Of a stretch of DNA of 64,000 nucleotides, positions 13,780-60,495 are shown piece after piece. The notes beneath the pieces are model-generated. The model saw nothing but the letters and a program-made list of their open reading frames with translations, searched no databases and was not told the origin of the DNA. Origin of the DNA: Candidatus Bathyarchaeota archaeon (GTDB lineage: Archaea; Thermoproteota; Bathyarchaeia; 40CM-2-53-6); NCBI GenBank assembly GCA_005883075.1, contig VBAX01000047.1:29598-93597 (forward strand). Reading direction: 5' to 3'. Within the stretch, counting starts at the first letter, position 1. Each line of letters begins with the position of its first letter. The translations under genes were made by a program, and so were the position numbers.

Positions 13780-13872
13780 CGGTCGAATTTCTCAACTGAG
13801 ACTCCGCCTTTCGTTCGATAATAACTGGCCTCGTACCAATGTCTCAATTTCGGCCGACAGGGAAAGCTTTCA

Positions 13873-14082
13873 GAATCGCCCATTATCAGCCCTGAACTCG
13901 ATTCTGGAAACCCCCTATGAACTCTCCCGAGATTCGTTCGGAATTGTCGTCTTCTTTCCATTCTGATCCCAGCCTAAATCCTGCCCTGAATCGTGTGACT
14001 CGCCCAGAATTAGTGCCAGACAGGAAGTCGTTTCCAGAAAATAGGGGGTCTTAGCGACCGACCCTCGCGTCGCAAGAGCGGC
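13873..14082 (+). repeat. copy A of a 4-copy, ~215-bp non-coding intergenic repeat family (candidate ncRNA or MITE)
   Basis: Aligns over its full length with 29626-29842 in the same orientation and with 47166-47384 and 58719-58930 as reverse complements. Conserved blocks are GCCCTGAAT, CTCGCC, CCAGACAG.AA.TC.TTC, AAAATAGGGGGTC and CGCG.CGCAAG. Confidence 0.8.
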
Positions 14083-14274
14083 GAAACTGATAAGCCCCAG
14101 AATTGGTTTAGGTATGTCATTCGTGGTCATGACCAATAGACCATTTTCGTGACACATAACTGTGTACTTCTCCGAATCTCGTTTCGTAGCGAAGGCTTAC
14201 GTTTCAGCCAAGCTCGCACGGTTCTAAGCACGAAACTACAGTATACCCAACCATTCGTTTTTTCTTGCAGACGC

Positions 14275-15030
14275 TCAGATCATTTTGAAATCTGTTTGTG
14301 GAATGTCTGCTCGAAGAACTGCTCCCGAGCTTCCGTCCAGCAGCGCGTTGTAGCTTCGTCCCTTGTACTCGTAGGTGCTGAACCAGATCGGTGCGTGAAT
14401 GTACGTCGGGCTGTCAACCTTGAAACTAGTATTGAAGGACGTTATCTGGTCCACTTCCTGTTTCGCCAAGAACCTCTGGTTCGCCTCCACTTCATACTTA
14501 GCACGTTGAATCGCCTCCTCGCTAGTCATCTCGCTGTTGAGGAAGTTCGCTCCCGAATCTATTCTCTTGAAATCGAAAGGAATCTTCCCTGTATTCGGGA
14601 TACTGTACTCCCGTGTCGGAAACTGCGCTCCCTTTCTTCCTAGGACAAGCCAGTCGTAATCCCTGTCTATCACGCCTTTCCTAGGCGAAGGTGGAGAGAC
14701 TCGCTCTAGTACTCCTTCGTAGTCGCTTGTTGCATCAACCTGGACGAGCCAGAACGGAAGATACCGCAATTCCAACGTCAAAATCTTGCTCTTCTTCGCG
14801 AGGTCTCCAGGCTTCATGAATCCCTCCCTCATCCAGTCGCGAAGAGCGTTCTCGATACTCGCAGCGTTGTTATTGTTGATGATGAGACTGTGTTCTAGCT
14901 GGAACGGTTGATCCGCCCCGACAACCGCAGTATAGCCACAGTAGCGGCAAGTCGAAACGATCTCTCCAGGGTTAATGCTGAAAGGCGCGCCACAATTCTC
15001 GCATTCTATTTCCGAAACAATGTCCACCAC
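14275..15030 (-). CDS. hypothetical protein with N-terminal zinc ribbon
   Basis: 251 aa with CENCGAPF...CRYCGY near the N-terminus. No recognisable family. Confidence 0.4.
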   Translation of the reverse strand: MVDIVSEIECENCGAPFSINPGEIVSTCRYCGYTAVVGADQPFQLEHSLIINNNNAASIENALRDWMREGFMKPGDLAKKSKILTLELRYLPFWLVQVDATSDYEGVLERVSPPSPRKGVIDRDYDWLVLGRKGAQFPTREYSIPNTGKIPFDFKRIDSGANFLNSEMTSEEAIQRAKYEVEANQRFLAKQEVDQITSFNTSFKVDSPTYIHAPIWFSTYEYKGRSYNALLDGSSGAVLRADIPQTDFKMI

Positions 15031-28926: not shown

Positions 28927-29592
28927 ATGATCTCATTGTGTGACGTGCGAGAGTCTTTAACCTTAGGCGAGATCCGGTTCGACATGCCGCGAGAGATGAC
29001 CGTACTAGAGGGAATCAACTCTCTTCGGTCCGTCCGAAAATTCAAGTCTGACCCCATTCCTGAGGACAAGTTGAGGATCATCCTCGAGTCCGCGTCCAAG
29101 GCCGCGTCTGGTAGCAATACTCAGCCATGGGAGTTCGTCGTGGTTCGTGATGCGAGGATGAAAGCGCGTCTCAAGGAACCGATGCTGAGAACATGGCTCG
29201 AAAAGCTTGCGGCTGGTTCGGGAATGTCTCAGCGTATGCGTGATGTCTATGACGATGCAACTGAGATGCTTCGGAACACTGACAATGTGCCCGTGATAAT
29301 CTACTGCTGCATTGACATCGATCGTGTTGGGAAGAGTGAGGAGGTCCGGTACGCAAGCATCTATCCTGCAGTCCAGAACCTTATGCTTGCAGCCCACGCG
29401 CTAGGTCTCGCAACCTGCCTGACTGTTCACGGGTCAACACCAACTCGTGGAGAGCCCGAGGTCAAGAAGCTACTTGAAATTCCGGAACACGTTAAGATCG
29501 CATGCCTTGTCTATCTAGGCTATCCAGCTGTTAGACTCGGTCATCCCAAGAGAAAGCCAATTGAGAAATTCACACACCACGACCACTGGTAA
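28927..29592 (+). CDS. nitroreductase-family protein
   Basis: Nitroreductase-fold motifs RSVRKF and SGSNTQPWEFVVV. Confidence 0.75.
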   Translation: MISLCDVRESLTLGEIRFDMPREMTVLEGINSLRSVRKFKSDPIPEDKLRIILESASKAASGSNTQPWEFVVVRDARMKARLKEPMLRTWLEKLAAGSGMSQRMRDVYDDATEMLRNTDNVPVIIYCCIDIDRVGKSEEVRYASIYPAVQNLMLAAHALGLATCLTVHGSTPTRGEPEVKKLLEIPEHVKIACLVYLGYPAVRLGHPKRKPIEKFTHHDHW

Positions 29593-29625
29593 GTCGCACC
29601 TTAATCGGGTTCCTTTCTAGCTTCT

Positions 29626-29842
29626 AAGCCCAAAGAGAAGCCAGATCGGGAATCTGGGACACCGTCAAATTCTCGCCTCCAAATTGTTCAGGAACTGACC
29701 TAAATTACACGTTAACTCGCTCTTTGATCAAAGCCCAAACCCTGCCCTGAATCGCAATATTCGCCCATTACCAATGCCAGACAGAAAATCTTCCCATCAA
29801 AAAATAGGGGGGTATTGCACAGAACATCTCACGACGCAAGTC
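29626..29842 (+). repeat. copy B of the ~215-bp intergenic repeat family
   Basis: Homologous to 13873-14082 in the same orientation. Lies between the convergent stops of the nitroreductase (+) and DUF35 (-) genes. Confidence 0.8.
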
Positions 29843-29845
29843 CGG

Positions 29846-30607
29846 CTATCCAGAGAGAGTGTCGCCAGGCTCGGTTTCAGAAGAGCTCTTAACCGCTTTC
29901 CGCCATTCTCTCGCCTTGTCCCCAAGCCTGCGAAGCAGCTTATCCTCTTCACGAGTGAGAAGTTCGCCTTTGCCAATCTTACTTCTTAGCGAGGATATCG
30001 TCATCTCATCCTCCTCTACCGGATATCCTGACTCTTCGATAGAATGGAGAAGCGACCTCGCCTGGTCATCCACCTTTCCCACATTCTGTCTCTCCGCTCT
30101 TCCACCCTCTACGGTTATCTTGCTTGGCACGGTTGAGATCGGTTTGAATGCGAGAATATCCGTGATAGCGCCTGTACGTTCTCCCAGGTTCTTGAGAGAT
30201 GGCGCTACTTTCATTCCGATCGATACGCTATCAGGATCCTCCGCAGCAAGCAAGTGGATTATTCCTCCCTTGACGCCTTCAAACTTCACGAGGCCCACTG
30301 TTACGGGCGAGTCGGTGTCAGAACCTGATCTGTTCCTATTGACACAAGTGAAACTGTAGACATAACCTGGCTTGTCGATTGGAAACTGGTCTTTCATCTC
30401 GATGAAACAGTCGGGGCAGTACATTCTGGCCGGAATGTAAGTGCTCTTGCACTTTGAGCATTTCGAGACTAGAAAGCGACCGTTATCCCGGAGTTCACGT
30501 CGAAACTCCTCCCCTGCAACCCCTGCAGTGTAGTGGTATTCCAGAGGTATGCTGTCCGTCCAGTGCCGAGCTTGACCGGGTTGAGCGAGTTTCTCTAAAA
30601 TTGGCAT
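29846..30607 (-). CDS. DUF35 OB-fold/zinc-ribbon protein with an about 90-aa charged C-terminal extension
   Basis: CSKCKS...CPDC rubredoxin-like ribbon followed by an OB fold. Extra C-terminal tail rich in E/K/R. Confidence 0.7.
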   Translation of the reverse strand: MPILEKLAQPGQARHWTDSIPLEYHYTAGVAGEEFRRELRDNGRFLVSKCSKCKSTYIPARMYCPDCFIEMKDQFPIDKPGYVYSFTCVNRNRSGSDTDSPVTVGLVKFEGVKGGIIHLLAAEDPDSVSIGMKVAPSLKNLGERTGAITDILAFKPISTVPSKITVEGGRAERQNVGKVDDQARSLLHSIEESGYPVEEDEMTISSLRSKIGKGELLTREEDKLLRRLGDKAREWRKAVKSSSETEPGDTLSG

Positions 30608-33527: not shown

Positions 33528-35180
33528 TCACTGCAGTGGCGGAGGTGGGGCCGATGATGAAGCAGGCACTTGCTGTGGGGGCGAGGGTTGCGGAGACCTG
33601 GCTCTAGGCGTTCCACACGTCGTGCAGAAGTTTTCTGTTGGACTGAGAGGCTTTCCACAAGCTCCACAATAGGCCGCGGGTATTCCAATCGGGTAAGGCA
33701 GAGTAGTTGGCATGGCGGCTCGGCGAGCATGTTCTCTCTTCAAGGCCACGAGTACAACTGTGATGGCGACAGTAATTGGAGGCAGGATTATCGTAAGAAG
33801 TTCTGCAATGCTGAAGACAGGGATCGAGATGTTGACTGGTCCTAGAACACTGGTACTAACGACAGACCGTACTCCATAGGGTACTGTAACGCGCAGGTTG
33901 TAGCTGCCTGGTGGCAATTGTGCAAGAGTAGCGTTCCCTTCAGGGCCGGTTTTTACCGTCTGATTTGTCGAGTCAGGGAGGAACGTGAGAACGGTCGCTC
34001 CGCTAACGGGCAGAGAGTAGAATCGACCGACTACTCGGACGGGAATTGAGAAGACATTTCCCTGGATTGTCTGGCTTGACGCCGCGCTCGAGACTAGAGT
34101 GTTGTTTACAACGTTGACGCCGTGCCAGTATGCGTAACTGATCGTATAAGTGCCGCTACTCGATTGAGGGATGCTCTGAGACATGTAGTGAGTATAGTAG
34201 ATGACATTGCCGGTGCCTGGGTCTCGTAGCGAAATCCAATCTGGCGTGAAAGGGCTCCCATTGCGATCAATGAAGTTGAAGGAGGTAATGGTGGGAAATC
34301 CTGATGTGGGCCAGAGTGGTGTAGAGGGAGGGATCTGTCCAACTACCTTTTGATCCGCGGGAATATTGCTTCCAGCGAGGAAGTCGTTGTCAATCGATTC
34401 GACCTCAACCACCCCATAGGGATTCAGGAGGTTTGATTGACTGCTGTACCCGAAGCAGCAGTGGCTTACCCCGGTTGGCATTTGGTGCCATGGACCTGCC
34501 TGGCGTATTTCTAGATCTTTGAACTCGGCAGGGCCGATTATGTCTTTGTTGTCCGAGGCCTGGGCTACTTCCGCGATTCCCGCTGGAGCCTGGTTGCCTG
34601 AGCTAGTTGCTCCTGCTCCAAGATAGTTTCTTTCCGATGGAAGAGGTGATTTTCCGAGTAGATTGCCATCCATGTAGAAGGACCAGACGCCATTGCCGGT
34701 GTGGGTCATTGAGTATGTGTGCCAGGACCCTATTGGTCCGGCTGACCCTTCAGGGCCGATTATGGGCGGACAGTCACAATTAGGGGTGTTGAAGGTTTCG
34801 AAGAACCAGGCGCAACAGTACGGTTGGCCAGTAGTGCTTAGTCCGTTAAGATATCCTACTTGGACGAAACCTCCGGTGGAGAGTAGGGATCCTACCCAGT
34901 AAGAATGCGCGTCGTTCCGAACCTGGTCATAGACCGTTCTCATTGTAATGTTCGCGCTGTCAACATTGTAACTGTTGTTGTCACCAATGGCTCCGATCTG
35001 GAACCAGTAATAGCTTCCAAGAGCAAAGGTGGTGGTTTGGAGTGGTGCTTGCCTAATTGGTTGAGGGACGAGAGCCGAGTTGGAATTGACAGTCCACGGG
35101 TTATGGCCGAGAACCATTAGAGACTGGAGGCCGGCGACGCTAATGATGGCTAGGGTAATCCAAAAGGTCCTTGTCCTCAT
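33528..35180 (-). CDS. secreted/cell-surface protein with beta-sandwich domains, C-terminal TM anchor and a cytoplasmic Zn-ribbon plus Pro-rich tail
   Basis: Signal peptide. The N-terminal domain has YWVGSLLSTGGFVQVGY, weakly resembling the WVGIDG...LQTG region of G1 (eqolisin) peptidases. The C-terminus is a TM helix followed by CGACGKPLSPTENFCTTCG and PQPSPPQQ. Confidence 0.5.
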   Translation of the reverse strand: MRTRTFWITLAIISVAGLQSLMVLGHNPWTVNSNSALVPQPIRQAPLQTTTFALGSYYWFQIGAIGDNNSYNVDSANITMRTVYDQVRNDAHSYWVGSLLSTGGFVQVGYLNGLSTTGQPYCCAWFFETFNTPNCDCPPIIGPEGSAGPIGSWHTYSMTHTGNGVWSFYMDGNLLGKSPLPSERNYLGAGATSSGNQAPAGIAEVAQASDNKDIIGPAEFKDLEIRQAGPWHQMPTGVSHCCFGYSSQSNLLNPYGVVEVESIDNDFLAGSNIPADQKVVGQIPPSTPLWPTSGFPTITSFNFIDRNGSPFTPDWISLRDPGTGNVIYYTHYMSQSIPQSSSGTYTISYAYWHGVNVVNNTLVSSAASSQTIQGNVFSIPVRVVGRFYSLPVSGATVLTFLPDSTNQTVKTGPEGNATLAQLPPGSYNLRVTVPYGVRSVVSTSVLGPVNISIPVFSIAELLTIILPPITVAITVVLVALKREHARRAAMPTTLPYPIGIPAAYCGACGKPLSPTENFCTTCGTPRARSPQPSPPQQVPASSSAPPPPLQ

Positions 35181-41315: not shown

Positions 41316-41753
41316 GTGGTTGGGCTGCGGAGCATGAAAGGGGTTCGGGACAAGGTTTACTCAGCGTGGAAAGAGGGGAAACCTCCTAGCCCTGCGATCG
41401 GGACGCTGGGGATTAGAGTTCGCAGCATAGAAGAGAGCAGAACGGTCCTCGAAATGGACGTGGACGAGCATTTGCACAACTTGTCCGGGACGATGCATGG
41501 GGGAGTCATGGTGGATATTGCGGATGCTGCGATGGGGATTGCGGTGGCGTCGACCCTGAAGCCCGATGAAGATATGACTACTATCGAGTTGAAGATGAGT
41601 TTCATGCGCCCTCACGTCAAGGGGCGGTTGGTTGCGGAGGGGACGATTGCCAAGAGGGGCCGGCGTATCGCCTTCACCGAGGCCGTTCTCACGAACGTGA
41701 AGAAGGAGATCGTAGCGAAGTGTAGCGGGACGTGGCTAATAATGCCCGCTTAG
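41316..41753 (+). CDS. PaaI/hotdog-fold acyl-CoA thioesterase
   Basis: HGGVMVDIADAAMG hotdog motif. Confidence 0.8.
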   Translation: MVGLRSMKGVRDKVYSAWKEGKPPSPAIGTLGIRVRSIEESRTVLEMDVDEHLHNLSGTMHGGVMVDIADAAMGIAVASTLKPDEDMTTIELKMSFMRPHVKGRLVAEGTIAKRGRRIAFTEAVLTNVKKEIVAKCSGTWLIMPA

Positions 41754-41765
41754 CTTGGCCTTGCC

Positions 41766-42590
41766 ATGTCGTCAAAGCGTCCTGTTGAACTCGGTAGAGA
41801 CGCGAGGCTCTTCCTCCTCTTCCTATCAGAAATCAATCTTGTAATGGGGGCTCTGTTCTTTGTCTATCCGAGCCTGGTGATCGGTCTATGGCCTTGGACT
41901 GTGAAGGCGTTGGCGGTACGGTTCATCGGCGCGATATTCCTAGCGATTGCGTTTGGCTGCTGGTCCGCTCTCAGAGCTAAGATCTGGCAGAGAGCGAAGA
42001 TTCTCGTGCTAGTCGGAGGAACGTTCTTCGGAATCACATCGATCGTCGCGATCGTCCTCGCGGCCTCACAAGGTGGCGGATACGTTATCTCCGGTTGGAC
42101 GGGATATTTCCTCGTCGCAAGTCTCGGAAATTTCTACCTGTTGAACCGATATGGTTGGCCCCGGAAGCCTCAAGATAGATTGAGTGCTGGCCGACCTTGG
42201 AAGACCGCCCGTTGGTTCTTCCGGATACAAACTGTCGTTGTCGGGGTGTTCGGCATCATGATGCTCTTGCTACCGGATGTCGCCCAGCGCGAGTTTTGGC
42301 CTTGGCTGGTAGCAACACCTACTCTGCAAATGTTCGCAGGCTTGTTCTTGGCCACTTGTCTCGCAACTGGTTGGGCCTCGTTGCAGACGGATATCGGTAG
42401 GGTCAGGGTTTTACTGCCTCTGGACGTGATCTTTCCAAGCCTCGCACTGTTGGCTGTGGGGATCCACTGGGATGTAATATTAAGCCAAAGCCCCAGTGCG
42501 CTAGTGACCGGAGTGTGGGTCTTCATCTACGCTTTCGTAGCAGTAGGTTCTGCTTACCTCTACTTCTACTCTAGAAAAATAGTGATGTAA
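41766..42590 (+). CDS. polytopic membrane protein, unknown function
   Basis: 274 aa, hydrophobic with at least 7 TM helices. Confidence 0.4.
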   Translation: MSSKRPVELGRDARLFLLFLSEINLVMGALFFVYPSLVIGLWPWTVKALAVRFIGAIFLAIAFGCWSALRAKIWQRAKILVLVGGTFFGITSIVAIVLAASQGGGYVISGWTGYFLVASLGNFYLLNRYGWPRKPQDRLSAGRPWKTARWFFRIQTVVVGVFGIMMLLLPDVAQREFWPWLVATPTLQMFAGLFLATCLATGWASLQTDIGRVRVLLPLDVIFPSLALLAVGIHWDVILSQSPSALVTGVWVFIYAFVAVGSAYLYFYSRKIVM

Positions 42591-42753
42591 TTTAGAAGAA
42601 TGCCTGATCTCGGCAAACGAGATCTACTCACGAAAAGTCTACTGAGAACAAGAAGCTAACGGGGCCGCGACGCGGATGGTCCCGTGGACGGGCGCTTCGC
42701 GTTCAAACTCTTGATCTAAATATCCCGATCGCCATTGTCGTAGCAGTTGGAAA

Positions 42754-43077
42754 ATGGCATCGCAAGTACCGTTGCTTACGCTAGCGAAATTCCTGGTCCT
42801 GATCGGAGGCGTCGTTCTCTTGGTCGGGGGAATATTGCAGGCTATTGACGTGAGACTAATGGATTTCGGTACCAACTTGGCCCGATTAGGAAGTTTCACA
42901 GGGATAGTCGTAGGAATCCTCGTAGGAATATTGGCACTAGTTGGATCAAGGGAGGTTGCCAATCCGGCATGGAGCCTCATCCTTCTAATACTCGGCTTAT
43001 TCGTTGGAAGCCTCGGCGGCATACTGGTCTTCATCGGAGGGCTGATCGGCCTCGTCGCCCACTACGTGAAGGTCTAA
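42754..43077 (+). CDS. small membrane protein (related to the 53040-54847 paralog family?)
   Basis: 107 aa with 3 TM helices and G/I/L-rich segments resembling the tandem membrane paralogs downstream. Confidence 0.4.
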   Translation: MASQVPLLTLAKFLVLIGGVVLLVGGILQAIDVRLMDFGTNLARLGSFTGIVVGILVGILALVGSREVANPAWSLILLILGLFVGSLGGILVFIGGLIGLVAHYVKV

Positions 43078-43371
43078 CGAGCCGATAGGTTCGAAAAACG
43101 AGGGTAAGATGTTGGAGATAGAAGTATACAATTGCGGTTGCAAGGTCCGCATCTATGCGGTGGAGTTCGGGGAGTCAAAGAACGACCTCACAGAGCGACC
43201 TAGCGTTATTTCAGATTACAGCCCTTGTTCCAAGCACCGGAATGCGCGTAGGATTCCGCCTCAAGAGGCTCGCCTCTTGAAGGTAAGGGGCGAACATGAG
43301 GCCTTTCTGAACGAGTAAAGACCCGCTTTCATTAGTGATTCACTCTTATTATTCGGTCGATGGCGCGGACC

Positions 43372-43842
43372 CTAGTTCTTTTTCCTATGCAGTAGATAGA
43401 GCGCTCCGAGTAGAACGGATACTGAAACAGCTCCGAATAGGATTGGGTTCGAGGACGCAAGTTGAAAGCCGACCTGAACTGCTGGGCTCTCTGTGACCCC
43501 TCTCAAGTACGGTATTTCGTAGGCTCCTGTAACATATCCGTATAGCCACACAGCTGCGAATCCTCCCAGAAAGATTACGAGTGCACCACGAGCGGAACCT
43601 CGATTTCGGGGTCTGGCCTCGACAGCAGTCGCGTTAGGTCCCTGGAACTGGGCTGCCTCTTCCGTCTCAGGAGCGGTTTCTTCGGGCTCTTGTGGGTGTG
43701 CGTGTTTGGTCAGACTGGTCAAAATATCATCCCTCGTAACGTTGGCCGCTCGAGGTATGGAAGAACCCTCAGGTCGCTTGCTCTGGCCGGAAAAACTGAA
43801 CCGGTGTCGTGGCCTCGGGGGTTTCTTCGAATCTGACCCCAA
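43372..43842 (-). CDS. membrane protein, unknown
   Basis: 156 aa with a charged N-terminus and C-terminal TM helices. Confidence 0.35.
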   Translation of the reverse strand: MGSDSKKPPRPRHRFSFSGQSKRPEGSSIPRAANVTRDDILTSLTKHAHPQEPEETAPETEEAAQFQGPNATAVEARPRNRGSARGALVIFLGGFAAVWLYGYVTGAYEIPYLRGVTESPAVQVGFQLASSNPILFGAVSVSVLLGALYLLHRKKN

Positions 43843-43960
43843 AGTTTGCTTTCCCCCATTATTCCATAGGCTTCGTTCGATTTGGGTGTAGACGTACTGT
43901 CGAGCCTCGGGCCTCGGACAGAGGTAACCTCTCGGTGCACATCACATAGAGTGGTCCGCT

Positions 43961-44650
43961 TTGGGACTCTCATGTTCAGAAAAATTGACGGTTCGGGCCG
44001 ATTTCATGTTCTGTTCAATAGTGAAGAACATGAAACCCGTTAAATCCATGTCCTGTGGAGTTGGTGGTCTAGCAATGTCCAAACTAGGCGCGGTAAACTT
44101 TCCCAGGATCAACATGATTTCCCTTCTAGCCGGAGCTCTCGCGCTTGCCAGCGTCTTTCTTCCCTGGTGGGGTATAGACGCATCCGGCTTCGGTTCCTCC
44201 GTCTCCTCCCGCTGGACTCTCTGGAACGGACCCTCAACGGACAGTATCTTTAGAGGTTCAACGCAGCCATATCCGACCTTGACCTCAGCAAGCCCGATAA
44301 TCGGGGCCCTAGTAGTAATCTCCGGTCTTCTGGCTATTGCGGGAAGTTTCACTTGGAATATTCGGCCTCTGATTGGGAGCTTCATACTCAGCGTTCTGAC
44401 GCCTATCGTGTATCTGGGAGTGGTCAGCTATTCTGTCACGAACTCCTGCGGTGGCCAGTCGAACTGTCTGAGCGGACCCTTCGGTACAGAAACTGTTTTC
44501 GGAATTACTCTGAACTGGGGCTTCCAATTAGGCTTCTATCTCTACCTTTTTGCTGGAGCTCTGACGCTGGTCGGGCTGGGCTTCCATCGAATCTTTCACA
44601 AGACAACTTCAACACTCGAGGCTTCCCAAGTTTCCGCGGGCCCGAGCTAG
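43961..44650 (+). CDS. membrane protein, unknown
   Basis: 229 aa with multiple TM helices. Confidence 0.4.
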   Translation: MGLSCSEKLTVRADFMFCSIVKNMKPVKSMSCGVGGLAMSKLGAVNFPRINMISLLAGALALASVFLPWWGIDASGFGSSVSSRWTLWNGPSTDSIFRGSTQPYPTLTSASPIIGALVVISGLLAIAGSFTWNIRPLIGSFILSVLTPIVYLGVVSYSVTNSCGGQSNCLSGPFGTETVFGITLNWGFQLGFYLYLFAGALTLVGLGFHRIFHKTTSTLEASQVSAGPS

Positions 44651-44774
44651 GCTCAGGTCCAAGTTGCGAGGCCCATTGTCGTCGGGCCGGAGTATGTTCT
44701 AAATTGGGGGAATTACCTGGTACCATTGAACCGGTGTTAGTCCTCTGTCAGCGACACATGCCGATGCCCAAGTT

Positions 44775-45608
44775 TTGGTTTTCTTAGGTACGGGTGGCGC
44801 AGATTGTACTCCCCGAGTTGGATGTTTGTGCGACATATGCACGGAAGCTCGTCGAAAGAAGGGAAGATATGCTCGTAACGGGCCTGGTGTTTTCTTTACC
44901 GGTATCGATTTGCTTCTTGATACTCCGGAAGACGTCGCCCACAGTCTGGAAAGGGAGGATATTCATCACGTGTCCCATCTGCTCTACCGTCACTGGCATC
45001 CGGATCATACGATGGGTCGCCGGGTTCTAGAACAGCTCAATCTGAACCTTCGAAAGAGAACGAAAACGATCACTGACGTGTGGCTACCGTCATGAGTCCG
45101 CGAGGACTTTCGAAAAATGCTTGGTCTGGAGGATCATTTCCAGTTCTTTGTGAAGATGGGGATTGTGCGGATTCACGAGTTCGAGGAGGGTGAAGCGGTC
45201 AAGCTTGGCGAGGCAACCGTGAAGGCTTTTCGTATGGCTCAGCCGGGTCTCGCTTCGTATCTAGTTCAACAGGGTGGGAAACGGGTCGTGCTCGCTCTCG
45301 ACGAGATTAAGGATTGGGATCCTGGGAGTGAGCTGTTGGAGCCAGATGTACTGGTCCTCGAGACTGGCTGGTTTGAACAAGATAAGGAGGGCGAGCAGAT
45401 CATCCCAACTGATCACTGGATTCGCAAGTCAGAAGCTTCTTTCGAAGAGACCCTCGAACTCGTCGAGAAAATCAATCCAAGATTGGCGATTGCAACGCAC
45501 ATTGAAGAGTTGAACGGGCGCTCTTACGTTGACTATCTTGAACTTGAGAAGGGGTTCAAGAAATACAGGTTGCGCTTTGCGTATGATGGGTTTCGAGTCT
45601 CCCTCTGA
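44775..45608 (+). pseudogene. PhnP-like MBL-fold phosphodiesterase interrupted by a single in-frame TGA at 45093-45095
   Basis: The N-terminal half (GTGGADCTPRVGCLCDIC...HWHPDH) and the C-terminal half (45117-45608) are in the same frame. They are separated by one TGA and 7 further codons. Confidence 0.55.
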
Positions 45609-45705
45609 AGATAGTCGCGAGGTTTGAATCTCGACATCCAAGCTCGAGCGAAAAGTAGGCTCAGGGCTGGGAATGTTAACATAACGCCTGCGAGTTTGGG
45701 ATGCC

Positions 45706-46683
45706 ATGTCTGGACAGAGGACTCTCTCCCTTGCGACAAGAGAGTTCGATCCCACCGACTATGCGAGGCTGGCTGAGATTTACAATGCGAACTATCCAGA
45801 CTATCCTCGTAGTGTCGGCGAGTGGCGTTCTAGGGATGAGAGCTTGGACAGGTCGAAGTACTATCTGCAAAGATACTCCTTTCTCGAGAATGATGTGATT
45901 GTCGGATTCGGGGTTGTGTCGCATGTTACTGACATGTTTCATCCGCGCAAGTTCTGGGTCGAGATACTTGTCGATCCACTATCGCAGGGAAGAGGAATTG
46001 GGGCCGCGATCTATGAGAGACTAGGTGGCGAACTGAGCAAACTGAACGCTGTTACGGCCTGGGCTGGAGGCAGAGAAGATCTGCCGAGACTCACCGGTTT
46101 CTATCAGCGGCGAGGTTTCATGGAGAAGCAGATTGCGTGGGAGTCACGTCTTGACGTGTCCAGTGTGGACTTTGAGCAATTCCGAGAGTATCCTGAGACG
46201 GTGCAGAGGCAGGGAATCACACTTACGACTCTCGCTGAAGCGCGGAGGGAAGGTCAAGATTCACTGAAGAAGCTTCACGAGCTTGTCCAGATTATCTCTG
46301 CTGACATGCCAAGTATAGCGTCTTTCACGCCGACCTCGTACGAACAGTGGGAGGCGTTCGAGCTCAAGAATCCGAATCTCCTGCCTGAGGGTTACATGAT
46401 AGCGAAGGACGGTTCCAACTATGTTGGACTCAGCACCGTCTGGCGCATCGATAAGGAGCCGAGAGGCCTCGTCCAGGGAAACACGGGTGTCAGGCGTGAA
46501 TATCGTGGTAGGGGAATAGCAATCGCGTTGAAGCTGGGAGTCATCGATTTCGCGAGACGGAACGGGTACGAGAAGGTGAAGACATGGAACGCATCCGATA
46601 ATGCACCTATGCTAGCGGTCAACACAAAGCTCGGCTTCAAGCGAGAAGTTGGCTGGATAATGCTGGAAAAGAACCTCGCCTGA
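45706..46683 (+). CDS. tandem-GNAT N-acetyltransferase
   Basis: Two GNAT-like halves (QGRGIGAA... and RGRGIAIALK...). Confidence 0.7.
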   Translation: MSGQRTLSLATREFDPTDYARLAEIYNANYPDYPRSVGEWRSRDESLDRSKYYLQRYSFLENDVIVGFGVVSHVTDMFHPRKFWVEILVDPLSQGRGIGAAIYERLGGELSKLNAVTAWAGGREDLPRLTGFYQRRGFMEKQIAWESRLDVSSVDFEQFREYPETVQRQGITLTTLAEARREGQDSLKKLHELVQIISADMPSIASFTPTSYEQWEAFELKNPNLLPEGYMIAKDGSNYVGLSTVWRIDKEPRGLVQGNTGVRREYRGRGIAIALKLGVIDFARRNGYEKVKTWNASDNAPMLAVNTKLGFKREVGWIMLEKNLA

Positions 46684-47165
46684 AAAACGTTAAGGCAACG
46701 TTTCTTGGTCCGTTTTCACATCTTCGCGTCCTCCTCGACGGAGTAGGTACTCCGAGAAACAAGTCACTTCGAGGCTGAGGCTCTGGTAACGACCAGCAAA
46801 TTGCCGGACTATGTCTGTCTTGTATGGAATACTAAGGGCAGGGATGCGGGGACTTGGCGACCTGGGAAGAACCTAGAGAACTGGACACTGACAATGAGGC
46901 TGTGATCAGCCTCTACGACGGCATCAAGAAAATACTGGAAAAACAGCCGAAGCCCAAGTCCAAGCCAAGCTCTGGCATCCCGAGAGAAGCAAGACACATC
47001 TTACGTTGCGGTCGAATCCTCAAGGTCGATATCGAACGGAAACTCATCGTTATTACTGTCATGAAAACGGACGGCGAGCTTCACCAGCTTCGAATAGAAG
47101 CCAACCAAGACTAACCGAACACCGGATCGGATCTAGGGATACTTTCGGAATACTCCGTTTCTCCC

Positions 47166-47384
47166 TCTCTTGTGACGCGAGGGTCGGTCGCTAAGACCCC
47201 CTATTTTCTAGAAAAGATTTCCTGTCTGGCATAGATAATCGGCGAGTCTCGCGATTCAGGGCACGATCCGGGCTTAGATGTGATCGCAAAAAACGGGAAG
47301 TCTAGCGCCATTCCCGAACGATTCAGGGGGCGAGATAGGGGTGTGGTCCCAGATTCGGGATCAGGGCTGATTTTGGGCGATCCA
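47166..47384 (-). repeat. copy C of the ~215-bp intergenic repeat family (reverse orientation)
   Basis: Its reverse complement aligns with 13873-14082, and the 3' half is nearly identical. Located downstream of the stop of the mutase gene. Confidence 0.8.
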
Positions 47385-47410
47385 AGACGCATAATTCCCT
47401 CTAGGTAACG

Positions 47411-48991
47411 TCACACGTCGCGCCTTACCCGGTATTCTCCGAAGGCGTCTCTTAGAACTTCGCTGATTTCACCGACGGTGCAGTTTGCCCGGACGGCGCT
47501 TAAGATGCGATTCACGAGATTCTCTTCGTGCTTCGCAGAACTGGAAAGGCGTCCAAGAGCATTTTTGACCAGCGCAGTATTTCTCGTTCCTTTCATCATC
47601 TTCAGCTGTCTTATCTGATCTCTCTCGAGCTTGGGGTCGATGCGCTGGATTTTTGGTCCACTGCTTCCCTCGGTAAACTTGTTGACTCCGACAATAATCG
47701 TTCGTCCTTCGTCAACAGATTTCTGGAACCTGTAAGCGCTTTCCTGTATCTCGCGATGGACAAATCCGGATTCTATCGCCTTTCTCGCGCCACCTAAATC
47801 TTCCACTTTCTCTAAGAGACGAGTCGCGTCGGCCTCAAGATCTCTTGTCAAGGATTCCAGATAGTAGCTACCGGCTAGTGGATCCGCCGTTTTGGTCACT
47901 CCTGATTCGTGGGCAATTATCTGCTGGGTACGCAAGGCAATTTGAACCGACTCTTCGGTTGGCAGAGAGAGTGCCTCGTCCCTGGAATTTGTATGCAGAG
48001 ATTGTGTTCCACCGAGAACTCCTGCAAGGGCTTGGATTGCGACCCGGACAATGTTGTTGTCAGGCTGTTGGGCGGTCAAAGTCTCACCACTTGTCTGGGT
48101 GTGAAATCGTAGCTTGCAGGATTCAGGATCCCGGGCTTTGAAACGGTCCTTCATGATCCGGGCCCAGATTCTACGCGCAGCTCTGAATTTCGCGATCTCC
48201 TCCAAGAAATCATTCCTGCAGGCAAAGAAGAAAGAAAGTTGGGGGGCGAACTGGTCTATCTTGAGCCCTCGTTCAAGAGCCGCCTTAACGTATTCGATCG
48301 CGTTTGCAAAACAAAAGCCTAGTTCCTGGATCGCGTTCGCGCCCGACTCGCGAATATGATAGCCACTGATGCTGATCGGGTGCCACCGGGGCATCTTGTA
48401 GGCGCAGTATTCTATGAGATCGACGGAGAGCTTTAGCGATGATTCTGGAGGATAGATGTAGGTATTCCTTGCGATGTACTCCTTCAGAATATCATTCTGT
48501 GTCGTTCCCGTTAACTTGTTCTGAGGGACCCCCTGTTCCATTCCAACCGCGACGTAGAGAGAAAGCAGGATTGGTGCGGTGGCGTTGATTGTCATGCTAG
48601 TGCTGACCTTTCCAAGGTCGATGCCCTCGAAGAGACGCCTCATGTCATAGACGCTACTTATTGCAACTCCCACTCTCCCAACTTCTCCAGCAGCCCTTGG
48701 ATAGTCTGAGTCGAGACCGAGCTGTGTTGGCAGGTCGAATGCTGTGCTGAGCCCGGTCTCACCGTGAGATATCAGATACTTGAAGCGGCGATTAGTTTCT
48801 TTGGCAGACCCGAAACCCGTGTATTGACGCATGGTCCAAAGCCGATCCCGATACATTCCATCGTAGATCCCACGCGTGTATGGGAACTGGCCCGGTTTCC
48901 CCAGTGACCTTGTCCAGTTCGGTGGAACATCCTTTTTCTCGTAGATTTTTTTGACGAGGATCCCAGAGTCTGTTGTTACAGGGTCGGTCAA
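47411..48991 (-). CDS. mcmA: methylmalonyl-CoA mutase, catalytic (large) subunit lacking the B12-binding domain
   Basis: MCM TIM-barrel with RQYTGFG (Tyr) and RNTYIYPP (Arg) signature residues. 526 aa, so no C-terminal B12 domain. Confidence 0.9.
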   Translation of the reverse strand: MTDPVTTDSGILVKKIYEKKDVPPNWTRSLGKPGQFPYTRGIYDGMYRDRLWTMRQYTGFGSAKETNRRFKYLISHGETGLSTAFDLPTQLGLDSDYPRAAGEVGRVGVAISSVYDMRRLFEGIDLGKVSTSMTINATAPILLSLYVAVGMEQGVPQNKLTGTTQNDILKEYIARNTYIYPPESSLKLSVDLIEYCAYKMPRWHPISISGYHIRESGANAIQELGFCFANAIEYVKAALERGLKIDQFAPQLSFFFACRNDFLEEIAKFRAARRIWARIMKDRFKARDPESCKLRFHTQTSGETLTAQQPDNNIVRVAIQALAGVLGGTQSLHTNSRDEALSLPTEESVQIALRTQQIIAHESGVTKTADPLAGSYYLESLTRDLEADATRLLEKVEDLGGARKAIESGFVHREIQESAYRFQKSVDEGRTIIVGVNKFTEGSSGPKIQRIDPKLERDQIRQLKMMKGTRNTALVKNALGRLSSSAKHEENLVNRILSAVRANCTVGEISEVLRDAFGEYRVRRDV

Positions 48992-49938
48992 GCGTGTTCT
49001 CCTAGCTTGGATATGATTTCCACAAGTCTCGATGCAGCTGTCTCTGGATCAAGTTCACGTTTGACAACTCTTCCGACTAGAGCGTCGAGTTCTTTCTGAT
49101 CTCCGAGACGCTTGACGGTCTGATGATAGAAATCTGAGAAAGCGGCATCTACCAGCTCGGACTGGATCCTTTTGCTCAATCTTTTCTCCCTGAGGCTTCC
49201 AGTCTCCAAATGCTTCCGGAATTTTTCGATTGCATCAACAACCGCAGGGACACCTGTTCCCTTGACCGCCACAGTCTTCAGAACCGGTGGCCTCCATCCA
49301 TCTCTCTCTTGCAGACCGCTTGCGATGTTGTAGATCGTCTTCGCTGGGTTGACCAGGTCTGACTTGTTGATGACGAACAGGTCGCCAATCTCAGCGAAGC
49401 CTGCCTTGAACGCCTGAACCTCATCGCCTAGCTGAGGCATCAGAACGACAATCGTGGCGTCCACTGTCGACGCGATTTGTACCTCCGTCTGGCCTGCTCC
49501 CACAGTCTCCACGATGATAACGTCCATCCCGGCTGCATCCAGTACTCGTATCGTGTTTCTCGCGGCTCGAGCGAGTCCACCCAGGTCACCTCGAGAGGCC
49601 ATGCTCCGAATGTAGACTTTCTTCTCCAGGCTATGGTCCATCATCCTCACCCGGTCCCCCAGCAACGCACCACCAGTGAACGCGCTGGACGGGTCGATTG
49701 CTAGAACTCCAACGCTACGTTCTCTCTCTCGATACTCTCCAACTATCTTGTCCACGAGAGTGCTCTTGCCAGTCCCAGTCGGACCAGTAACGCCGATGGT
49801 GAAGGCCTTGCCCGTATGCGGATACAATTCTTGAATCAGCTTTCGGCTCGGCTCTCCGCCAGCCTCGACTATCGAGATCGCCTTGGCAACAGCGCGATGC
49901 TCACTCTTGAGCACTTGAGAAGATAGCTCCCGAGCCAA
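48988..49938 (-). CDS. meaB: MeaB/ArgK methylmalonyl-CoA mutase-associated GTPase (G-protein chaperone)
   Basis: P-loop GPTGTGKST and an NKSD G4 motif. Overlaps the upstream mutase gene by 4 nt. Confidence 0.9.
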
Positions 49939-57437: not shown

Positions 57438-58688
57438 TTGGGGACGTCTGAGGAAGAAAACTTGCCCGGGAAGGCTGACGTTGTAATTGTGGGAGCGGGT
57501 ATAGCCGCTCTGGCACTGGCAGTAGAACTTCAGAAAAAAGGGATCTCGACAATCCTCCTTGAACGACAAAGGAGTCCTGAGGGCATTCCGCGTGGTCTGA
57601 CTTTCCAGCCGAATGGCTTGGCGGTTCTAGAAAGGCTTGGAGCACTTGGTCGGGCCAGAGAGGTTGGTTCTGCGTCCCAGATTCTCGAAGTGAAAAGCTG
57701 GGAGGGAGAAGTTCTGCTTGAAGCGGATTACAGCTTGTTGGATCACCCCCAGAACTATCTCCTGACGGCGAATGCTACTGAGCTGGAGCGGTTGCTCGTC
57801 TATGTGGCCGAGCAGGCCGGAGCGCAGGTTCTCTGGGGAACCTCCTTCCAAGAAATAGTCCTGAACGCGGGCCGGGCAGAAGGAGTAGTCTATGAAAGCG
57901 AGGGAGTTAGAGACGAGATCAGAGCACCTGTCGTAGTTGGAGCGGATGGTCCTCAATCGCATGTCCGAACTAGCCTTGGCGTAGAGGTGAAGACAAAGAA
58001 GTACCCTGATTCATTTCTAGTCGGACTCGTCGGTCCCGTTCCAGGCTTGGAGGGCAGGGCGCGCCAGTACCAGCATCCGGGAAAGATGCTTGGGATTATG
58101 CCTTCAGGACCTGAGGCGACCTATCTCTTCCATTGTGTGGGTCCGCGTAGTTTTGATAGTGTGAAGAAGGAGGGTTTGGGGTCTTTTAGGGCGGAGGTTG
58201 TTCAGGCGGCGCCGGAGATGGCGGACGCATTTACAGGTGTTGAAGCATGGACCAAGATGGCATACTTTACGCCCTCGTTCATACAAGTGAACAAGTGGGT
58301 GGGAAACGGGATCGCACTGCTCGGGGATTCAGCGCACACTTTTCATCCACACGCCGGACAGGGAGTAAACCTCGCACTGGAGGACGCAGTGGTGTTGGCC
58401 GAAGTGATCGAGAAATGTAAGATAGCGGGAGACTTCTCACAGACGGCATTGCTGGAATATCAGACCCAGCGGAAAGTGCGCGCTGACGTGATCGGGAAGC
58501 ATGCGAACTATACGGTGACGTATGCGCTGAGCGATAACTGGCTGATAAAACGGCTGAACCGGAGGGCGCTTCGGAAGTTGAACAAGGACAAGAAGCTGCA
58601 GAAGAAAGCGTTAGAGATCACTGCCGGGATCTTCGAGAAGAAGCCCGGACTGGTGACCTTGGCGAAGATTGGGGGAATACTACCCTGA
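57438..58688 (+). CDS. FAD-dependent monooxygenase (UbiH/geranylgeranyl-reductase-like)
   Basis: VVIVGAGIAALALA dinucleotide-binding motif, a DG motif, and GDSAHTFHPHAGQG. Confidence 0.75.
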   Translation: MGTSEEENLPGKADVVIVGAGIAALALAVELQKKGISTILLERQRSPEGIPRGLTFQPNGLAVLERLGALGRAREVGSASQILEVKSWEGEVLLEADYSLLDHPQNYLLTANATELERLLVYVAEQAGAQVLWGTSFQEIVLNAGRAEGVVYESEGVRDEIRAPVVVGADGPQSHVRTSLGVEVKTKKYPDSFLVGLVGPVPGLEGRARQYQHPGKMLGIMPSGPEATYLFHCVGPRSFDSVKKEGLGSFRAEVVQAAPEMADAFTGVEAWTKMAYFTPSFIQVNKWVGNGIALLGDSAHTFHPHAGQGVNLALEDAVVLAEVIEKCKIAGDFSQTALLEYQTQRKVRADVIGKHANYTVTYALSDNWLIKRLNRRALRKLNKDKKLQKKALEITAGIFEKKPGLVTLAKIGGILP

Positions 58689-58718
58689 ACCGCGGGCTCT
58701 TGAGCCTCCAGAGGGAAA

Positions 58719-58930
58719 CCGCTCTTGCGTCGCGAGGTGCGCTGTGCAAGACCCCCCCTTTTAGAGGAGAAAATTTTCTGTCTGGTAGTGATTATGGGCG
58801 AGACGGGCTATTCAGGGCTCAGACCAGGCTTGGATCAGGTGACGTTTTTACGAGTCGTCAAGAAGGATTTGCTATGCAATTAAGCGGACTGTCTACAGAT
58901 TCGAGATCAGGGCTTGAAATGGGCGAATCC
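58719..58930 (-). repeat. copy D of the ~215-bp intergenic repeat family (reverse orientation)
   Basis: Its reverse complement aligns with copies A and B. Lies between the convergent stops of the monooxygenase (+) and surface-protein (-) genes. Confidence 0.8.
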
Positions 58931-58962
58931 ACGGCTAGAAGCGCGTCGCATGTTGGATTGTC

Positions 58963-60495
58963 TCACTTGTCATCCTTTTCCTTCGCTACCTGATCCTTAA
59001 CCGACTTGAAGAAGTCCGTGCTCTCGATTCGTCCAGCTTCCGACCGGACAGCGTCCAAGTCAATTTTCAACCTGGCATGTGTTACCTTGCGACGTCTGAA
59101 CGCGAAGAATACAGCAACTAGTAGCAAGGCTAGTAGGGCGGCTATTATACCGAAATAATAGAGCGGGAAAGAAGCACTCCCCCCAGACGCATTCTGAACA
59201 GTGATGGCTCGCGTCGCAGAGCCAGTGTTGGGAGGCGTCGGCGAGTCTGATGCCGTGACAACCAGGGACCAGAGCCCACCAGTGTCCGAAGGTCGCACTG
59301 TATATGTTCCTATCCATAATCTCAGGGATGTGTCGAAAACAACCGGAACAGTATCGTTGATCGTGGGCGTCCCGCTGTAGAGTAAGTAAGCTTTCACAGT
59401 GCCCGGCTGGAAAACCGTACCGTCAGGATACGTGACGTTCGCATTGAAGGTAAGCTGTTGACCCACAGCGATGGTAGAGTTAGTGGTTACAATGACAGTT
59501 AGAGGGATAGTTGCTAGCAGCGGGGCGGTGGAGACTATTGTTCCGGGACCATTGTTCCCGTAAGCGTCGCTATAGGCATGTCCCCCCAAGCTTGCAGTCC
59601 ACGTCCCGGTCTGATTATCCAACGACGTCTGGTAAGACGCATCGAAAGTCTGAGACGCACTATCATATGTCGCCGTCAAAGTGACGGTGTTACCAGGCCC
59701 AGCCAAGTTTAGGAGAGCGACTCCTGTCGAGGGAATGGACCCATCTGGATAATTGGGCTGAAAGAAGAAACTCATCGTCTCCGTCCTCTGGTAGACTGAT
59801 TTGACGGACGTGATCGAGCTAACGATCATAATCGCAGGTCCCAGCGAGAAAGGTTGCGAATCAGCCGGATTCTTGACAGTGCTTGTCCCGGTCAAGGTAA
59901 CAATGTAAGTGTCTATTGTGGCGTTTCTTGGGGTCTTCCAGCTTGTAGCCACGATCCCCGTGCCCGTCGCTGGTACGTTTTGGGAAAAGACGAGCGTTGA
60001 GGTGCTCTGGGTCCTGATGGTTACTGTAACACTTTCTGACGCGCTGTATCCGCTTGCCTGTATGAGCACAGTTTGCGTTCTCTGATATGAGGAACTATCC
60101 GTGATGGTGAGTATGAACGAGGTCCCAGCTATGCTTGGCGATGCGGTGGGCCATAGCTCATCGACCTTGGCATTGTACTGGCCGACTAGCGTGTTCGATC
60201 CTTGGAATGAAGGACTTGGGTAGACAACTATCAGGGTAAACTTGTCTTGGCCTGGTGCGGTCGTATAGTTCGCCAGAGTTTGAGCGGTCTTCCCTGCTGG
60301 ATCGGTTACGGAGAACCTGAACCTGTATTGGGTGTTGGGAACGGCACTATTTGCAGATAGGACAAGGCTGACCGTGTTCCCTTCCGATGTCGCTGCCGGA
60401 ACGGAGTTCAGAGAGAATGGCGGGTCAGCGTGAACCATTGGGACTATATTGATCGATAGAAGAGGGACAAAGACGACGAGGGCAAGCAGAAGCAT
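58963..60495 (-). CDS. Thr/Ser-rich cell-surface (S-layer-like) glycoprotein candidate with C-terminal TM anchor
   Basis: Signal peptide, many N-x-S/T sequons and Ig-like repeats. The C-terminus is a TM helix (IIAALLALLLVAVFFAF) followed by an RRRK tail. Confidence 0.6.
   Translation of the reverse strand: MLLLALVVFVPLLSINIVPMVHADPPFSLNSVPAATSEGNTVSLVLSANSAVPNTQYRFRFSVTDPAGKTAQTLANYTTAPGQDKFTLIVVYPSPSFQGSNTLVGQYNAKVDELWPTASPSIAGTSFILTITDSSSYQRTQTVLIQASGYSASESVTVTIRTQSTSTLVFSQNVPATGTGIVATSWKTPRNATIDTYIVTLTGTSTVKNPADSQPFSLGPAIMIVSSITSVKSVYQRTETMSFFFQPNYPDGSIPSTGVALLNLAGPGNTVTLTATYDSASQTFDASYQTSLDNQTGTWTASLGGHAYSDAYGNNGPGTIVSTAPLLATIPLTVIVTTNSTIAVGQQLTFNANVTYPDGTVFQPGTVKAYLLYSGTPTINDTVPVVFDTSLRLWIGTYTVRPSDTGGLWSLVVTASDSPTPPNTGSATRAITVQNASGGSASFPLYYFGIIAALLALLLVAVFFAFRRRKVTHARLKIDLDAVRSEAGRIESTDFFKSVKDQVAKEKDDK

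Follow-up and report, generated by a model that had tools for sequence, protein, structure and literature searches.

The question raised by this locus is what kind of element recurs, about once every 15 to 16 kb, between the genes of a segment of a Bathyarchaeia chromosome. We analyzed a 64,000-nucleotide (nt) stretch of contig VBAX01000047.1 from a Candidatus Bathyarchaeota archaeon (assembly GCA_005883075.1), referred to below as the window, in which a preliminary description had pointed out four homologous copies of an unannotated repeat. We found that the copies belong to a genuine, non-coding, abundant and previously undescribed family, found so far only in a few related soil Bathyarchaeia, and that the family is defined by blocks of primary sequence, not by a covarying fold.

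The repeat family in the window and in soil Bathyarchaeia

The four stretches were aligned using MAFFT. The alignment runs end to end with a mean column identity of 71%, and the blocks named in the preliminary description are all invariant in it. When a profile built from this four-copy alignment was searched against the 64-kb window using nhmmer, exactly four matches were obtained, with E values from 1e-63 to 1e-74:

13854-14107, plus strand: profile match of copy A (nhmmer E 1e-70), conserved core 13873-14081
29601-29871, plus strand: profile match of copy B (nhmmer E 6e-63), conserved core 29626-29842
47141-47407, minus strand: profile match of copy C (nhmmer E 1e-74), conserved core 47163-47383
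58693-58952, minus strand: profile match of copy D (nhmmer E 2e-69), conserved core 58717-58931

No fifth copy was found in the window by the profile search up to E=10, and relaxed searches of the window with the 3' motif added no unit. With at most 3 mismatches, two occurrences of the 21-nt 5' motif were found in the window, against 0 expected by chance. One 5'-motif-like stretch, TCCGCCCATAATCGGCCCTGA at 34750-34770 (minus strand), has 4 mismatches in 21 and lies inside an open reading frame (ORF) of 550 amino acids (aa); it is probably a chance resemblance, as the family profile gives no match there.

The preliminary description had placed the four copies correctly to within a few bases of the measured cores. 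Its blocks (GCCCTGAAT, CTCGCC, CCAGACAG..AA.T, the G-run and CTCGCG.CGCAAGAG) are present, and the pattern of conserved blocks and variable spacers is real. It had also called copies A and C nearly identical over their 3' 90 nt. The two are indeed about 91% identical there, but only over roughly the last 66 nt, so that the claim was slightly generous. Copies B, C and D lie between convergent gene ends, as had been said of three of the four, and copy A lies between two genes of the opposite strand. The genes that flank the copies in the window are housekeeping genes, encoding a GHMP kinase, a nitroreductase, a methylmalonyl-CoA mutase and a flavin adenine dinucleotide (FAD)-dependent reductase.

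The repeat had been described as non-coding, and the analysis agrees. No frame is open across the copies, most copies have stops in all six frames, and neither the conservation in general nor the invariant runs show a 3-base periodicity. The antisense strand is often stop-free for at least 100 codons (window 13915-14157, minus strand, and 58700-58993, plus strand, and about 50 related loci). A 50-locus "protein cluster" at the copies was rejected as merely the antisense translation of the element, and because of these stop-free antisense strands, ORF callers will list spurious "conserved hypothetical proteins" over the repeats.

Copies were also found well beyond the window, whereas their absence there would have counted against a repeat family. 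Species-representative genomes, one per species, were scanned with the pattern GCCCTGAATNGNNNNNNTCGCCN{9,13}CCAGACAG, which gave 27 loci, all from six soil metagenome-assembled genomes (MAGs) of Bathyarchaeota or "Crenarchaeota". In soil metagenomes there were at least 119 pattern-matching stretches, and all matches listed are from soil. The pattern scans fetched 146 stretches (the L-numbered loci below), which together with the window make 1.04 Mb; the invariance of the scan-pattern blocks in these loci is partly by construction. The profile search of this set gave 204 matches, 176 of them full length. The window is syntenic with four of the scanned loci at 80-91% nucleotide identity, and because of this synteny with soil Bathyarchaeota MAG loci we regard it as a segment of a Bathyarchaeia chromosome. 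Two scans of viral contigs gave 0 matches, and a viral origin was therefore rejected.

The search against Rfam supported the view that the repeat was previously unannotated. At the gathering score, the whole window had 0 matches, and with permissive filters the seven array-bearing loci gave only a chance-level match (E=9.8). Since this permissive search returned no ribozyme match, a self-cleaving ribozyme satellite or retrozyme-like repeat was rejected. A tRNA-derived or tRNA-targeted element was also rejected, as the window has no tRNA. A full-text literature search found no published work on repeats in Bathyarchaeia.

Conserved blocks and tests of structure

The unit is about 240 nt long (215-240 nt) and has sharp ends, (G)AAATCGCC ... 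CTCGCGACGCAAGAGYGG. The family logo places an abrupt left boundary between (G)AAA and TCGCC (in a longer form, between (G)AAA and TCGCCCATTATCAGCCCTGATCTCGAATCTGG) and a right boundary at GAGYGG(TT), i.e., CTCGCGACGCAAGAGYGG(TT), with unconserved flanks. GAAA precedes TCGCC in 82-90% of the copies; since a duplicated dimer shares about 15 nt more upstream, however, GAAA may be internal to the element. A variable tail of 20-45 nt follows GAGYGG, with GGTCCCTCGGACCCTTGTGAAAGTAA in about 17 of 118 copies. We count this 3' tail as part of the unit because the tails of copy D and its orthologue in locus L035 have diverged and end where the flanks align again.

Inside the unit there are short blocks (AATCGTTCGG, ATCnAAGCC, GCCCTGAATCG, CTCGCCCAtaATCA, CCAGACAGnAAAT and the G-run), separated by spacers that are conserved in length and free in sequence. 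The central blocks are invariant or nearly so in an alignment of 34 copies. Each unit also holds three pairs of direct-repeat motifs, TCGCCCAT.ATCA, GCCCTGA(A)TC and CGCAAGA. Near the two ends are palindromes capable of forming hairpins, CCCTGAT-N5-ATCTGGG on the 5' side and CTTGC..GCAAG on the 3' side.

The units carry no terminal inverted repeats, the 5' end AAATCGCCCATTATCAG being unrelated to the reverse-complemented 3' end CCRCTCTTGCGTCGCGAG and a repeat search giving no terminal inverted pair, and no target duplications were found at the four window copies or in the flank logos of about 120 copies. The MITE (miniature inverted-repeat transposable element), offered in the preliminary description as the alternative to a structured RNA, thus lacks both of its marks here, and a classical MITE was excluded on these two absences.

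Units also occur in arrays. Head-to-tail pairs were found at about 30 loci and a triplet at one locus, with a period of about 240 nt and a conserved junction, CAAGAG-YGGTTGAGGGAAcACTCtgaTTCgCGAA-ATCGCC. Some arrays are mixed. Diverged "type 2" units, which stand directly upstream of type 1 units in the mixed arrays, share with type 1 only the 5' motif, AAGCC..GCCC, CAGACAGGAAA, a hairpin with an A-rich loop (the A-loop hairpin) and the 3' motif. The diverged units are as follows:

L031:625-880, minus strand: type 2 unit
L118:722-974, plus strand: type 2 unit
L052:4010-4266, plus strand: type 2 unit
L079:2140-2392, plus strand: type 2 unit
L023:2670-2925, minus strand: type 2 unit
L067:1011-1115, plus strand: "type 3" relative, still more diverged and without the 5' motif

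The type 3 unit has GCCCTGAATCG..ATCGCCC..CCAGACAG, a perfect CCCTCT-GAGA-AGAGGG hairpin and a terminal GACGTGAGAGAGG. The match at L067 covers the 3' half only; its interpretation as an autonomous element was rejected, since it is a diverged type 3 unit.

The preliminary description had favored a structured RNA with possible compensatory changes in the terminal hairpin. The folding analyses did not bear this out. RNAalifold on the 34-copy alignment gave -3.4 kcal/mol on the forward strand (five invariant pairs) and -4.0 kcal/mol on the reverse strand, with 0 compensatory pairs, and the two largest subfamily alignments gave about -3.7 kcal/mol. In the consensus folding as a whole (34 copies on both strands and eight subfamily alignments), the two largest subfamilies had no shared fold, and no column pair reached 0.3 in the averaged base-pair probabilities. 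Four helices chosen by eye were paired in 76.2% of the cells versus 76.6% in shuffled alignments, with a covariation score of 0.155 versus 0.164.

Since MAFFT may misalign variable stems, an alignment-free test was also used. In the test, 130 copies of less than 92% identity were scanned with pairs of 14-nt windows, and the duplex energy within copies was compared with that across subfamilies. Over several hundred window pairs the t values ranged from -3.3 to +4.5, which is noise, and no co-evolving complementary segments were found.

Three local hairpins were examined further. Most copies have the terminal CTTGC..GCAAG hairpin, and its three outer pairs hold in about 74% of the cells, but the variation is confined to one side, contrary to the compensatory changes that had been suspected there. 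A hairpin at the array junction, AGAGUGG/CCACUCU, showed weak covariation (0.133 versus 0.103, 1 of 500 shuffles, 64% of the cells paired), a signal that falls in the tool's stated false-positive range for related sequences. The A-loop hairpin was found in 11 of 12 representatives of types 1-3, where it starts 12-16 nt past the first base of CAGACAG. Its position just after CCAGACAG is kept in types 1, 2 and 3 despite differing stems, and these stems are unrelated to each other (UCUCC/GGAGG, GACCUCUCC/GGGGGGGUC, GGUCAU/AUGACC, GGGUCGU/AUGACCC and CCCUCU/AGAGGG). In type 2 units, the AAUCUGG that precedes CAGACAG and the CCAGAUU that follows the hairpin are perfect complements. Long-range CCCC/GGGG pairing, together with the perfect complements in copy A, was rejected because the pairings cross each other and are not general.

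Because of these local hairpins, chiefly the positionally conserved A-loop hairpin, the single-stranded form of the unit, as RNA or as single-stranded DNA, probably matters, and within it, as far as the predicted folds go, probably a few stem-loops. The sequence blocks themselves are probably read by a protein.

It was considered that the units may act as functional non-coding RNAs, be it as small RNA genes or as cis-acting modules of 3' untranslated regions (3'-UTRs). The RNA would arise by processing of arrays or of read-through transcripts. Its invariant blocks would then bind proteins or make tertiary contacts, and its variable modules would form hairpins at the periphery. Such an RNA would suit the kept position of the A-loop hairpin with stems that differ by type and with G.U pairs that exist solely on the forward strand, the occurrence of different hairpins at the same central position in different module types, and the weak signal at the junction hairpin. 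On the other hand, there is hardly any consensus structure on either strand, the candidate helices score like shuffles, the 130 copies hold no co-evolving windows, and Rfam has no matching family even in the permissive search. There is also no conserved promoter-like sequence upstream, the flanks being unconserved beyond GAAA. We consider an RNA function possible, yet doubtful.

The features of the window copies are as follows:

13873-14082, plus strand: copy A, a short "A-type" unit (profile match and sequence)
13873-13909, plus strand: 5' motif of copy A, GAATCGCCCATTATCAGCCCTGAACTCGATTCTGGAA (family logo and repeat search)
13983-13991, 13999-14004 and 14016-14023, plus strand: central invariant blocks of copy A, GCCCTGAAT, CTCGCC and CCAGACAG
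14030-14048, plus strand: A-loop hairpin region of copy A, GTTTCC-AGAAAATA-GGGGG (single-sequence folds)
14050-14081, plus strand: 3' subterminal hairpin and 3' motif of copy A, CTTAGCGAC...GTCGCAAG-AGCGG
Surroundings of copy A: a GHMP-kinase-like gene whose 5' side ends at 13779 and an ORF at 14275-15030, both on the minus strand
29626-29842, plus strand: copy B, long type, between a nitroreductase stop at 29592 and a convergent ChsH2-like stop at 29846
47163-47383, minus strand: copy C, 24 nt downstream of the methylmalonyl-CoA mutase gene (stop at 47411)
58681-58931, minus strand: copy D with a "D-type" central module, composed of the core 58717-58931 and a variable 3' tail of about 36 nt (58681-58716)

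The 5' motif of copy A holds TCGCCCA and GCCCTGA, each of which recurs downstream as a direct repeat, and it forms an imperfect palindrome, CCCTGA..N..TCTGG. The arms of its A-loop hairpin also have perfect complements upstream (13902-13911 with 14030-14039, and 13910-13918 with 14041-14049). CTCGCGTCGCAAGAG, at the 3' end of copy A, is a near-palindrome that matches both strands. Copy A is about 82-90% identical to the units L004:1316-1532 and L009:2329-2544 (BA_4 MAG), and its orthologue, L014:5070-5303, is of a different subtype. The end motifs of copy B are degenerate (AAGCCCAAAGAGAAGCCAGA at the 5' end and CTCACGACGCAAGTC at the 3' end); its orthologues are L008:7098-7329 (87% identity) and L024:1054-1285 (74%). 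Copy D sits between convergent genes that end at 58963 and 58688.

Two other loci were noted among the fetched stretches. L138:3303-5393 (minus strand) encodes a thiamine-pyrophosphate enzyme, similar to the beta subunit of pyruvate:ferredoxin oxidoreductase, with an intein that carries a LAGLIDADG homing-endonuclease domain. L018:5960-6647, downstream of an element and a 5'-motif fragment, looks by eye like the end of a ribosomal RNA gene (e.g., GGGCTTAGATGCTTTCAGC).

Copying, recombination and constraint in place

A complete dimer (468 nt, 86% identity) is found in unrelated flanks at two loci, L004 and L009, which are contigs of the VBAY01 MAG. The homology begins about 15 nt upstream of AATCGCC and ends at GAGCGG. 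The shared dimer in unrelated flanks therefore shows past copying of a sharp-ended multimer to a new locus. Copies without recognizable flank homology are mostly 55-70% identical, where the high-identity tail is inseparable from unrecognized orthologues or recent copies; this range of identities suggests that there was no recent burst of copying.

Orthologous sites differ in having one unit or two. The one example inspected has its breakpoint within the 5' motif common to the units, an indication of unequal recombination. Window 41709-47267 aligns with L009:8000-2437, and window 47197-49470 aligns with L009:2272-1. A single unit in the window thus corresponds to two in L009, and copy C is a chimera, or collapse, of the two tandem L009 units. 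Copy D and the orthologous L035:630-856 have in common a rare 5' variant, ATTTCAAG, and a near-identical 3' third, and differ in their central modules. This mosaic therefore indicates ectopic gene conversion or module exchange.

Beside the 3' end of copy B (window 29840-29845), three loci, L024 (1275-3547), L040 and L136, have an extra 2.3-2.6 kb. The 2.3-kb insert in L024 contains several ordinary ORFs, including one for a 323-aa protein with C-terminal zinc-ribbon-like CxxC motifs, and was rejected as a transposase carrier because it holds ordinary genes only.

The rate of change at orthologous sites was then compared with that of neighboring genes and between blocks and spacers. In the gene flanking copy B, third codon positions are 83% identical in L008 and 77% identical in L024. 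Since the corresponding values for copy B are 87% and 74%, drift in the whole unit is about as fast as at silent sites. For the constraint test we used only eight orthologous pairs with both flanks matched and with 75-97% element identity. Conserved columns were those at or above 90% across the family, with the columns of the search pattern left out; the two column classes derive from the same data that were compared. Conserved columns differed at 10 of 314 positions (3.2%) and variable columns at 133 of 632 (21%), a contrast of about 6.5-fold. This difference indicates that the blocks are preserved in situ, either because of selection or because other copies convert them. A guide-like function of the spacers was rejected because the spacers evolve nearly neutrally between orthologues.

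The constraint on the blocks (3.2% versus 21%) is also what a functional RNA would show, as is the persistence of copies at orthologous sites across species. It fits poorly with classical MITEs or neutral dead relics, i.e., decaying products of cut-and-paste transposition with terminal inverted repeats and target-site duplications, since in the orthologous pairs the blocks are about 6.5 times better conserved than the spacers. Short, non-coding, intergenic copies enriched in convergent spacers (40 versus 18 divergent among 116 sites) would be expected of such relics, and the degenerate end motifs of copy B and the spacers that evolve at about the third-codon-position rate agree with them. However, the 5' and 3' ends have no inverted repeat in common, no direct duplication flanks the copies, and the orientation of the copies relative to GC skew is non-random. 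We regard this origin as very improbable.

Strand orientation and the nature of the element

We compared the orientation of the copies with that of neighboring genes at 116 sites, of which 40 were convergent, 33 tandem-antisense, 25 tandem-sense and 18 divergent. Relative to divergent spacers, convergent ones are thus over-represented, and there is no clear strand rule. An initial bias of 26 of 32 faded over the 116 sites, and a 3'-UTR or terminator module with a fixed gene orientation was rejected. This independence from neighboring genes also tells against the 3'-UTR form of a functional RNA.

The orientation does follow base composition. With the elements masked, the forward strand of the element was the C-rich strand at 92 of 115 copies (within 3 kb on either side); with 4 kb on either side, this was so for 46 of the 63 independent sites (p=3e-4). 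Gene strands around the copies are balanced (31 versus 32), so that the polarity is independent of gene orientation. The same skew was seen at 44 of 58 sites for intergenic DNA, at 42 of 52 for third codon positions in same-strand genes and at 44 of 53 for genes on the opposite strand, and the mean coding-strand skew is only +0.011. The asymmetry is strand-wide and of the replication type, where the reading of skew as replication is an assumption.

In the window, the cumulative GC skew rises up to about 12 kb, has its minimum near 34 kb and then rises steadily to 64 kb. Copies A and B (plus strand) lie in the segment of negative skew from 12 to 34 kb, and copies C and D (minus strand) lie in the segment of positive skew from 34 to 64 kb; all four thus follow the rule, and the sign changes of the skew coincide with the switch in element orientation. 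The segment from 12 to 34 kb could be an inversion, or there could be an origin-like or terminus-like switch near 34 kb.

Elements of the IS200/IS605 type are known to insert in an orientation linked to replication, with the active strand on the lagging-strand template (PMC5027513), and the orientation of the present units is also biased relative to a replication-like strand asymmetry, with a polarity that seems to be the opposite if the G-rich strand leads. Polar host motifs or co-directional transcription units would produce the same skew pattern. For a functional RNA, the polarity could mean that transcription units are under selection with respect to replication; were the G-rich strand the leading one, however, transcription of the forward strand would run head-on to replication.

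The polarity also bears on the proposal that the units are host cis-acting polar DNA platforms for a chromosomal protein that acts in replication, termination, segregation or nucleoid organization. By analogy with the logic of BIME/REP, KOPS and Ter sites, such platforms would have spread by duplication in the past and would now be under selection. Blocks of primary sequence at fixed spacing without covariation, constrained in situ, agree with this proposal, and the three pairs of direct-repeat motifs per unit would suit a multimeric binder. The proposal also agrees with an orientation tied to a gene-independent strand asymmetry, and with the location of copies among housekeeping genes at about one per 16 kb in the window. 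Binding to double-stranded DNA, however, would leave unexplained the A-loop hairpin with its changing stems, the head-to-tail arrays with conserved linkers and the presence of a copied dimer at a second locus. A length of 220-240 bp is very large for a polar motif, and no candidate protein is known. We think this proposal unlikely.

Tentatively, and with confidence short of even, we favor an old non-autonomous element with a single-strand intermediate, similar either to palindrome-associated transposable elements (PATEs) or to rolling-circle elements, that has since been reshuffled by recombination. The units would first have spread through a single-stranded DNA intermediate, mobilized in trans by an HUH-type enzyme. 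The closest models would be PATEs derived from IS200/IS605 elements, or rolling-circle elements, in which read-through of the terminator would yield multimers. Insertion coupled to replication would account for the strand polarity. The family would now be nearly immobile, and its present evolution would proceed by ectopic gene conversion and by unequal crossing-over at shared motifs. A protein, the mobilizing enzyme or else a host factor, would recognize the invariant blocks, which selection or conversion would keep intact in situ.

The haloarchaeal PATEs are non-autonomous derivatives of IS200/IS605-type elements, with a length that leaves no room for a transposase gene (PMC3119063). Terminal inverted repeats and target duplication are lacking in them, and they show near-terminal palindromes, heterogeneous termini of 20-50 bp and repeat-mediated deletions (PMC3119063). 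The present units are like PATEs in being non-coding, in lacking terminal inverted repeats and target duplication, and in having a heterogeneous 3' tail. Head-to-tail arrays with conserved linkers, in contrast, are not a described feature of PATEs, and the blocks of the present units are constrained in situ. PATE-type insertion is expected 3' of a conserved tetra- or pentanucleotide, and for the present units no conserved target oligonucleotide was established. The PATE is the closest description among known kinds of element, and the family is not filed under any of them.

Several observations weigh against an origin as a PATE-like or rolling-circle-like element. Among orthologous sites no empty site was found, and there was no near-identical pair at clearly different loci, so that there is no sign of current mobility. 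Beside the 176 full-length copies, in about 1 Mb of flanking DNA, there was no transposase, TnpB or Rep gene and no IS605-type transposon with matching ends; the recurrent neighbors are housekeeping genes. The two near-terminal palindromes usually resemble each other in IS200/IS605 elements and PATEs (PMC3119063), whereas those of the present units are unlike each other. The contrast of about 6.5-fold between blocks and spacers is unexpected for plain decaying transposon relics. That GC skew is a replication signal in these archaea is itself an assumption. As a rule the leading strand is G-rich. Under this rule, the strand that forms the better hairpins (with many G.U pairs), which is the C-rich strand, would be the leading-strand template, and the polarity would apparently be opposite to that of IS608.

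The rolling-circle elements (IS91/ISCR, and non-autonomous copies of the Helitron type) may resemble the present units in their asymmetric ends without inverted repeats or target duplications, and in a 3' subterminal hairpin a few bases from the end. Reading through the terminator would also account for the tandem multimers, and a whole dimer was copied to a new locus. In contrast to such elements, there is no Rep/Y2 gene in the flanking DNA of the units and no conserved flanking di- or tetranucleotide. IS91/ISCR or Helitron-type elements are not known to have been reported in archaea.

Other known repeats were also compared. Like the bacterial BOX, ERIC/IRU and REP/BIME repeats, the present units are lineage-specific, non-coding, intergenic, enriched at the 3' ends of genes and modular, with a variable number of modules, and the function of those repeats is likewise debated. 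Those repeats, however, are largely palindromic, whereas the present units are not, and the present units are archaeal and strand-polar. REP/BIME units are short GC-rich palindromes of 20-40 nt, often in alternating orientation; this class was rejected, since the present units are 215-240 nt long, are not palindromic overall and form head-to-tail arrays. The omega-RNA of TnpB and the HEARO RNA of IscB resemble the family in being multi-copy non-coding elements of about 200 nt with a sharp end that abuts a variable flank. The present units differ in having no adjacent nuclease gene, no HEARO match and no covarying scaffold, and a TnpB/IscB guide-RNA scaffold was rejected because the recurrent neighbors are housekeeping genes and there is no Rfam match.

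A bolder suggestion, which we would put forward only as a speculative possibility, is that the family represents a hitherto undescribed kind of archaeal element that takes its orientation from the replication fork. It might be either an HUH-mobilized, multimer-forming, single-strand transposon or a domesticated polar element or abundant RNA. In the domesticated version, a host protein could read about eight invariant blocks, at about one copy per 15 kb chromosome-wide.

Hardly any of the genome biology of Bathyarchaeia, an abundant group that is uncultured, has been explored. The present family fills roughly one intergenic region per 15 kb of the window, and it shapes local gene order, as seen in the gene-content difference of 2.3-2.6 kb right at an element end. 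The family model is usable to mask or label hundreds of unexplained intergenic segments in genome annotation. Because its orientation is independent of genes, the element is a potential marker of replication direction and of inversions in fragmented archaeal MAGs. The family is also a candidate case, in archaea, of single-strand transposition coupled to replication, or else of a polar host element.

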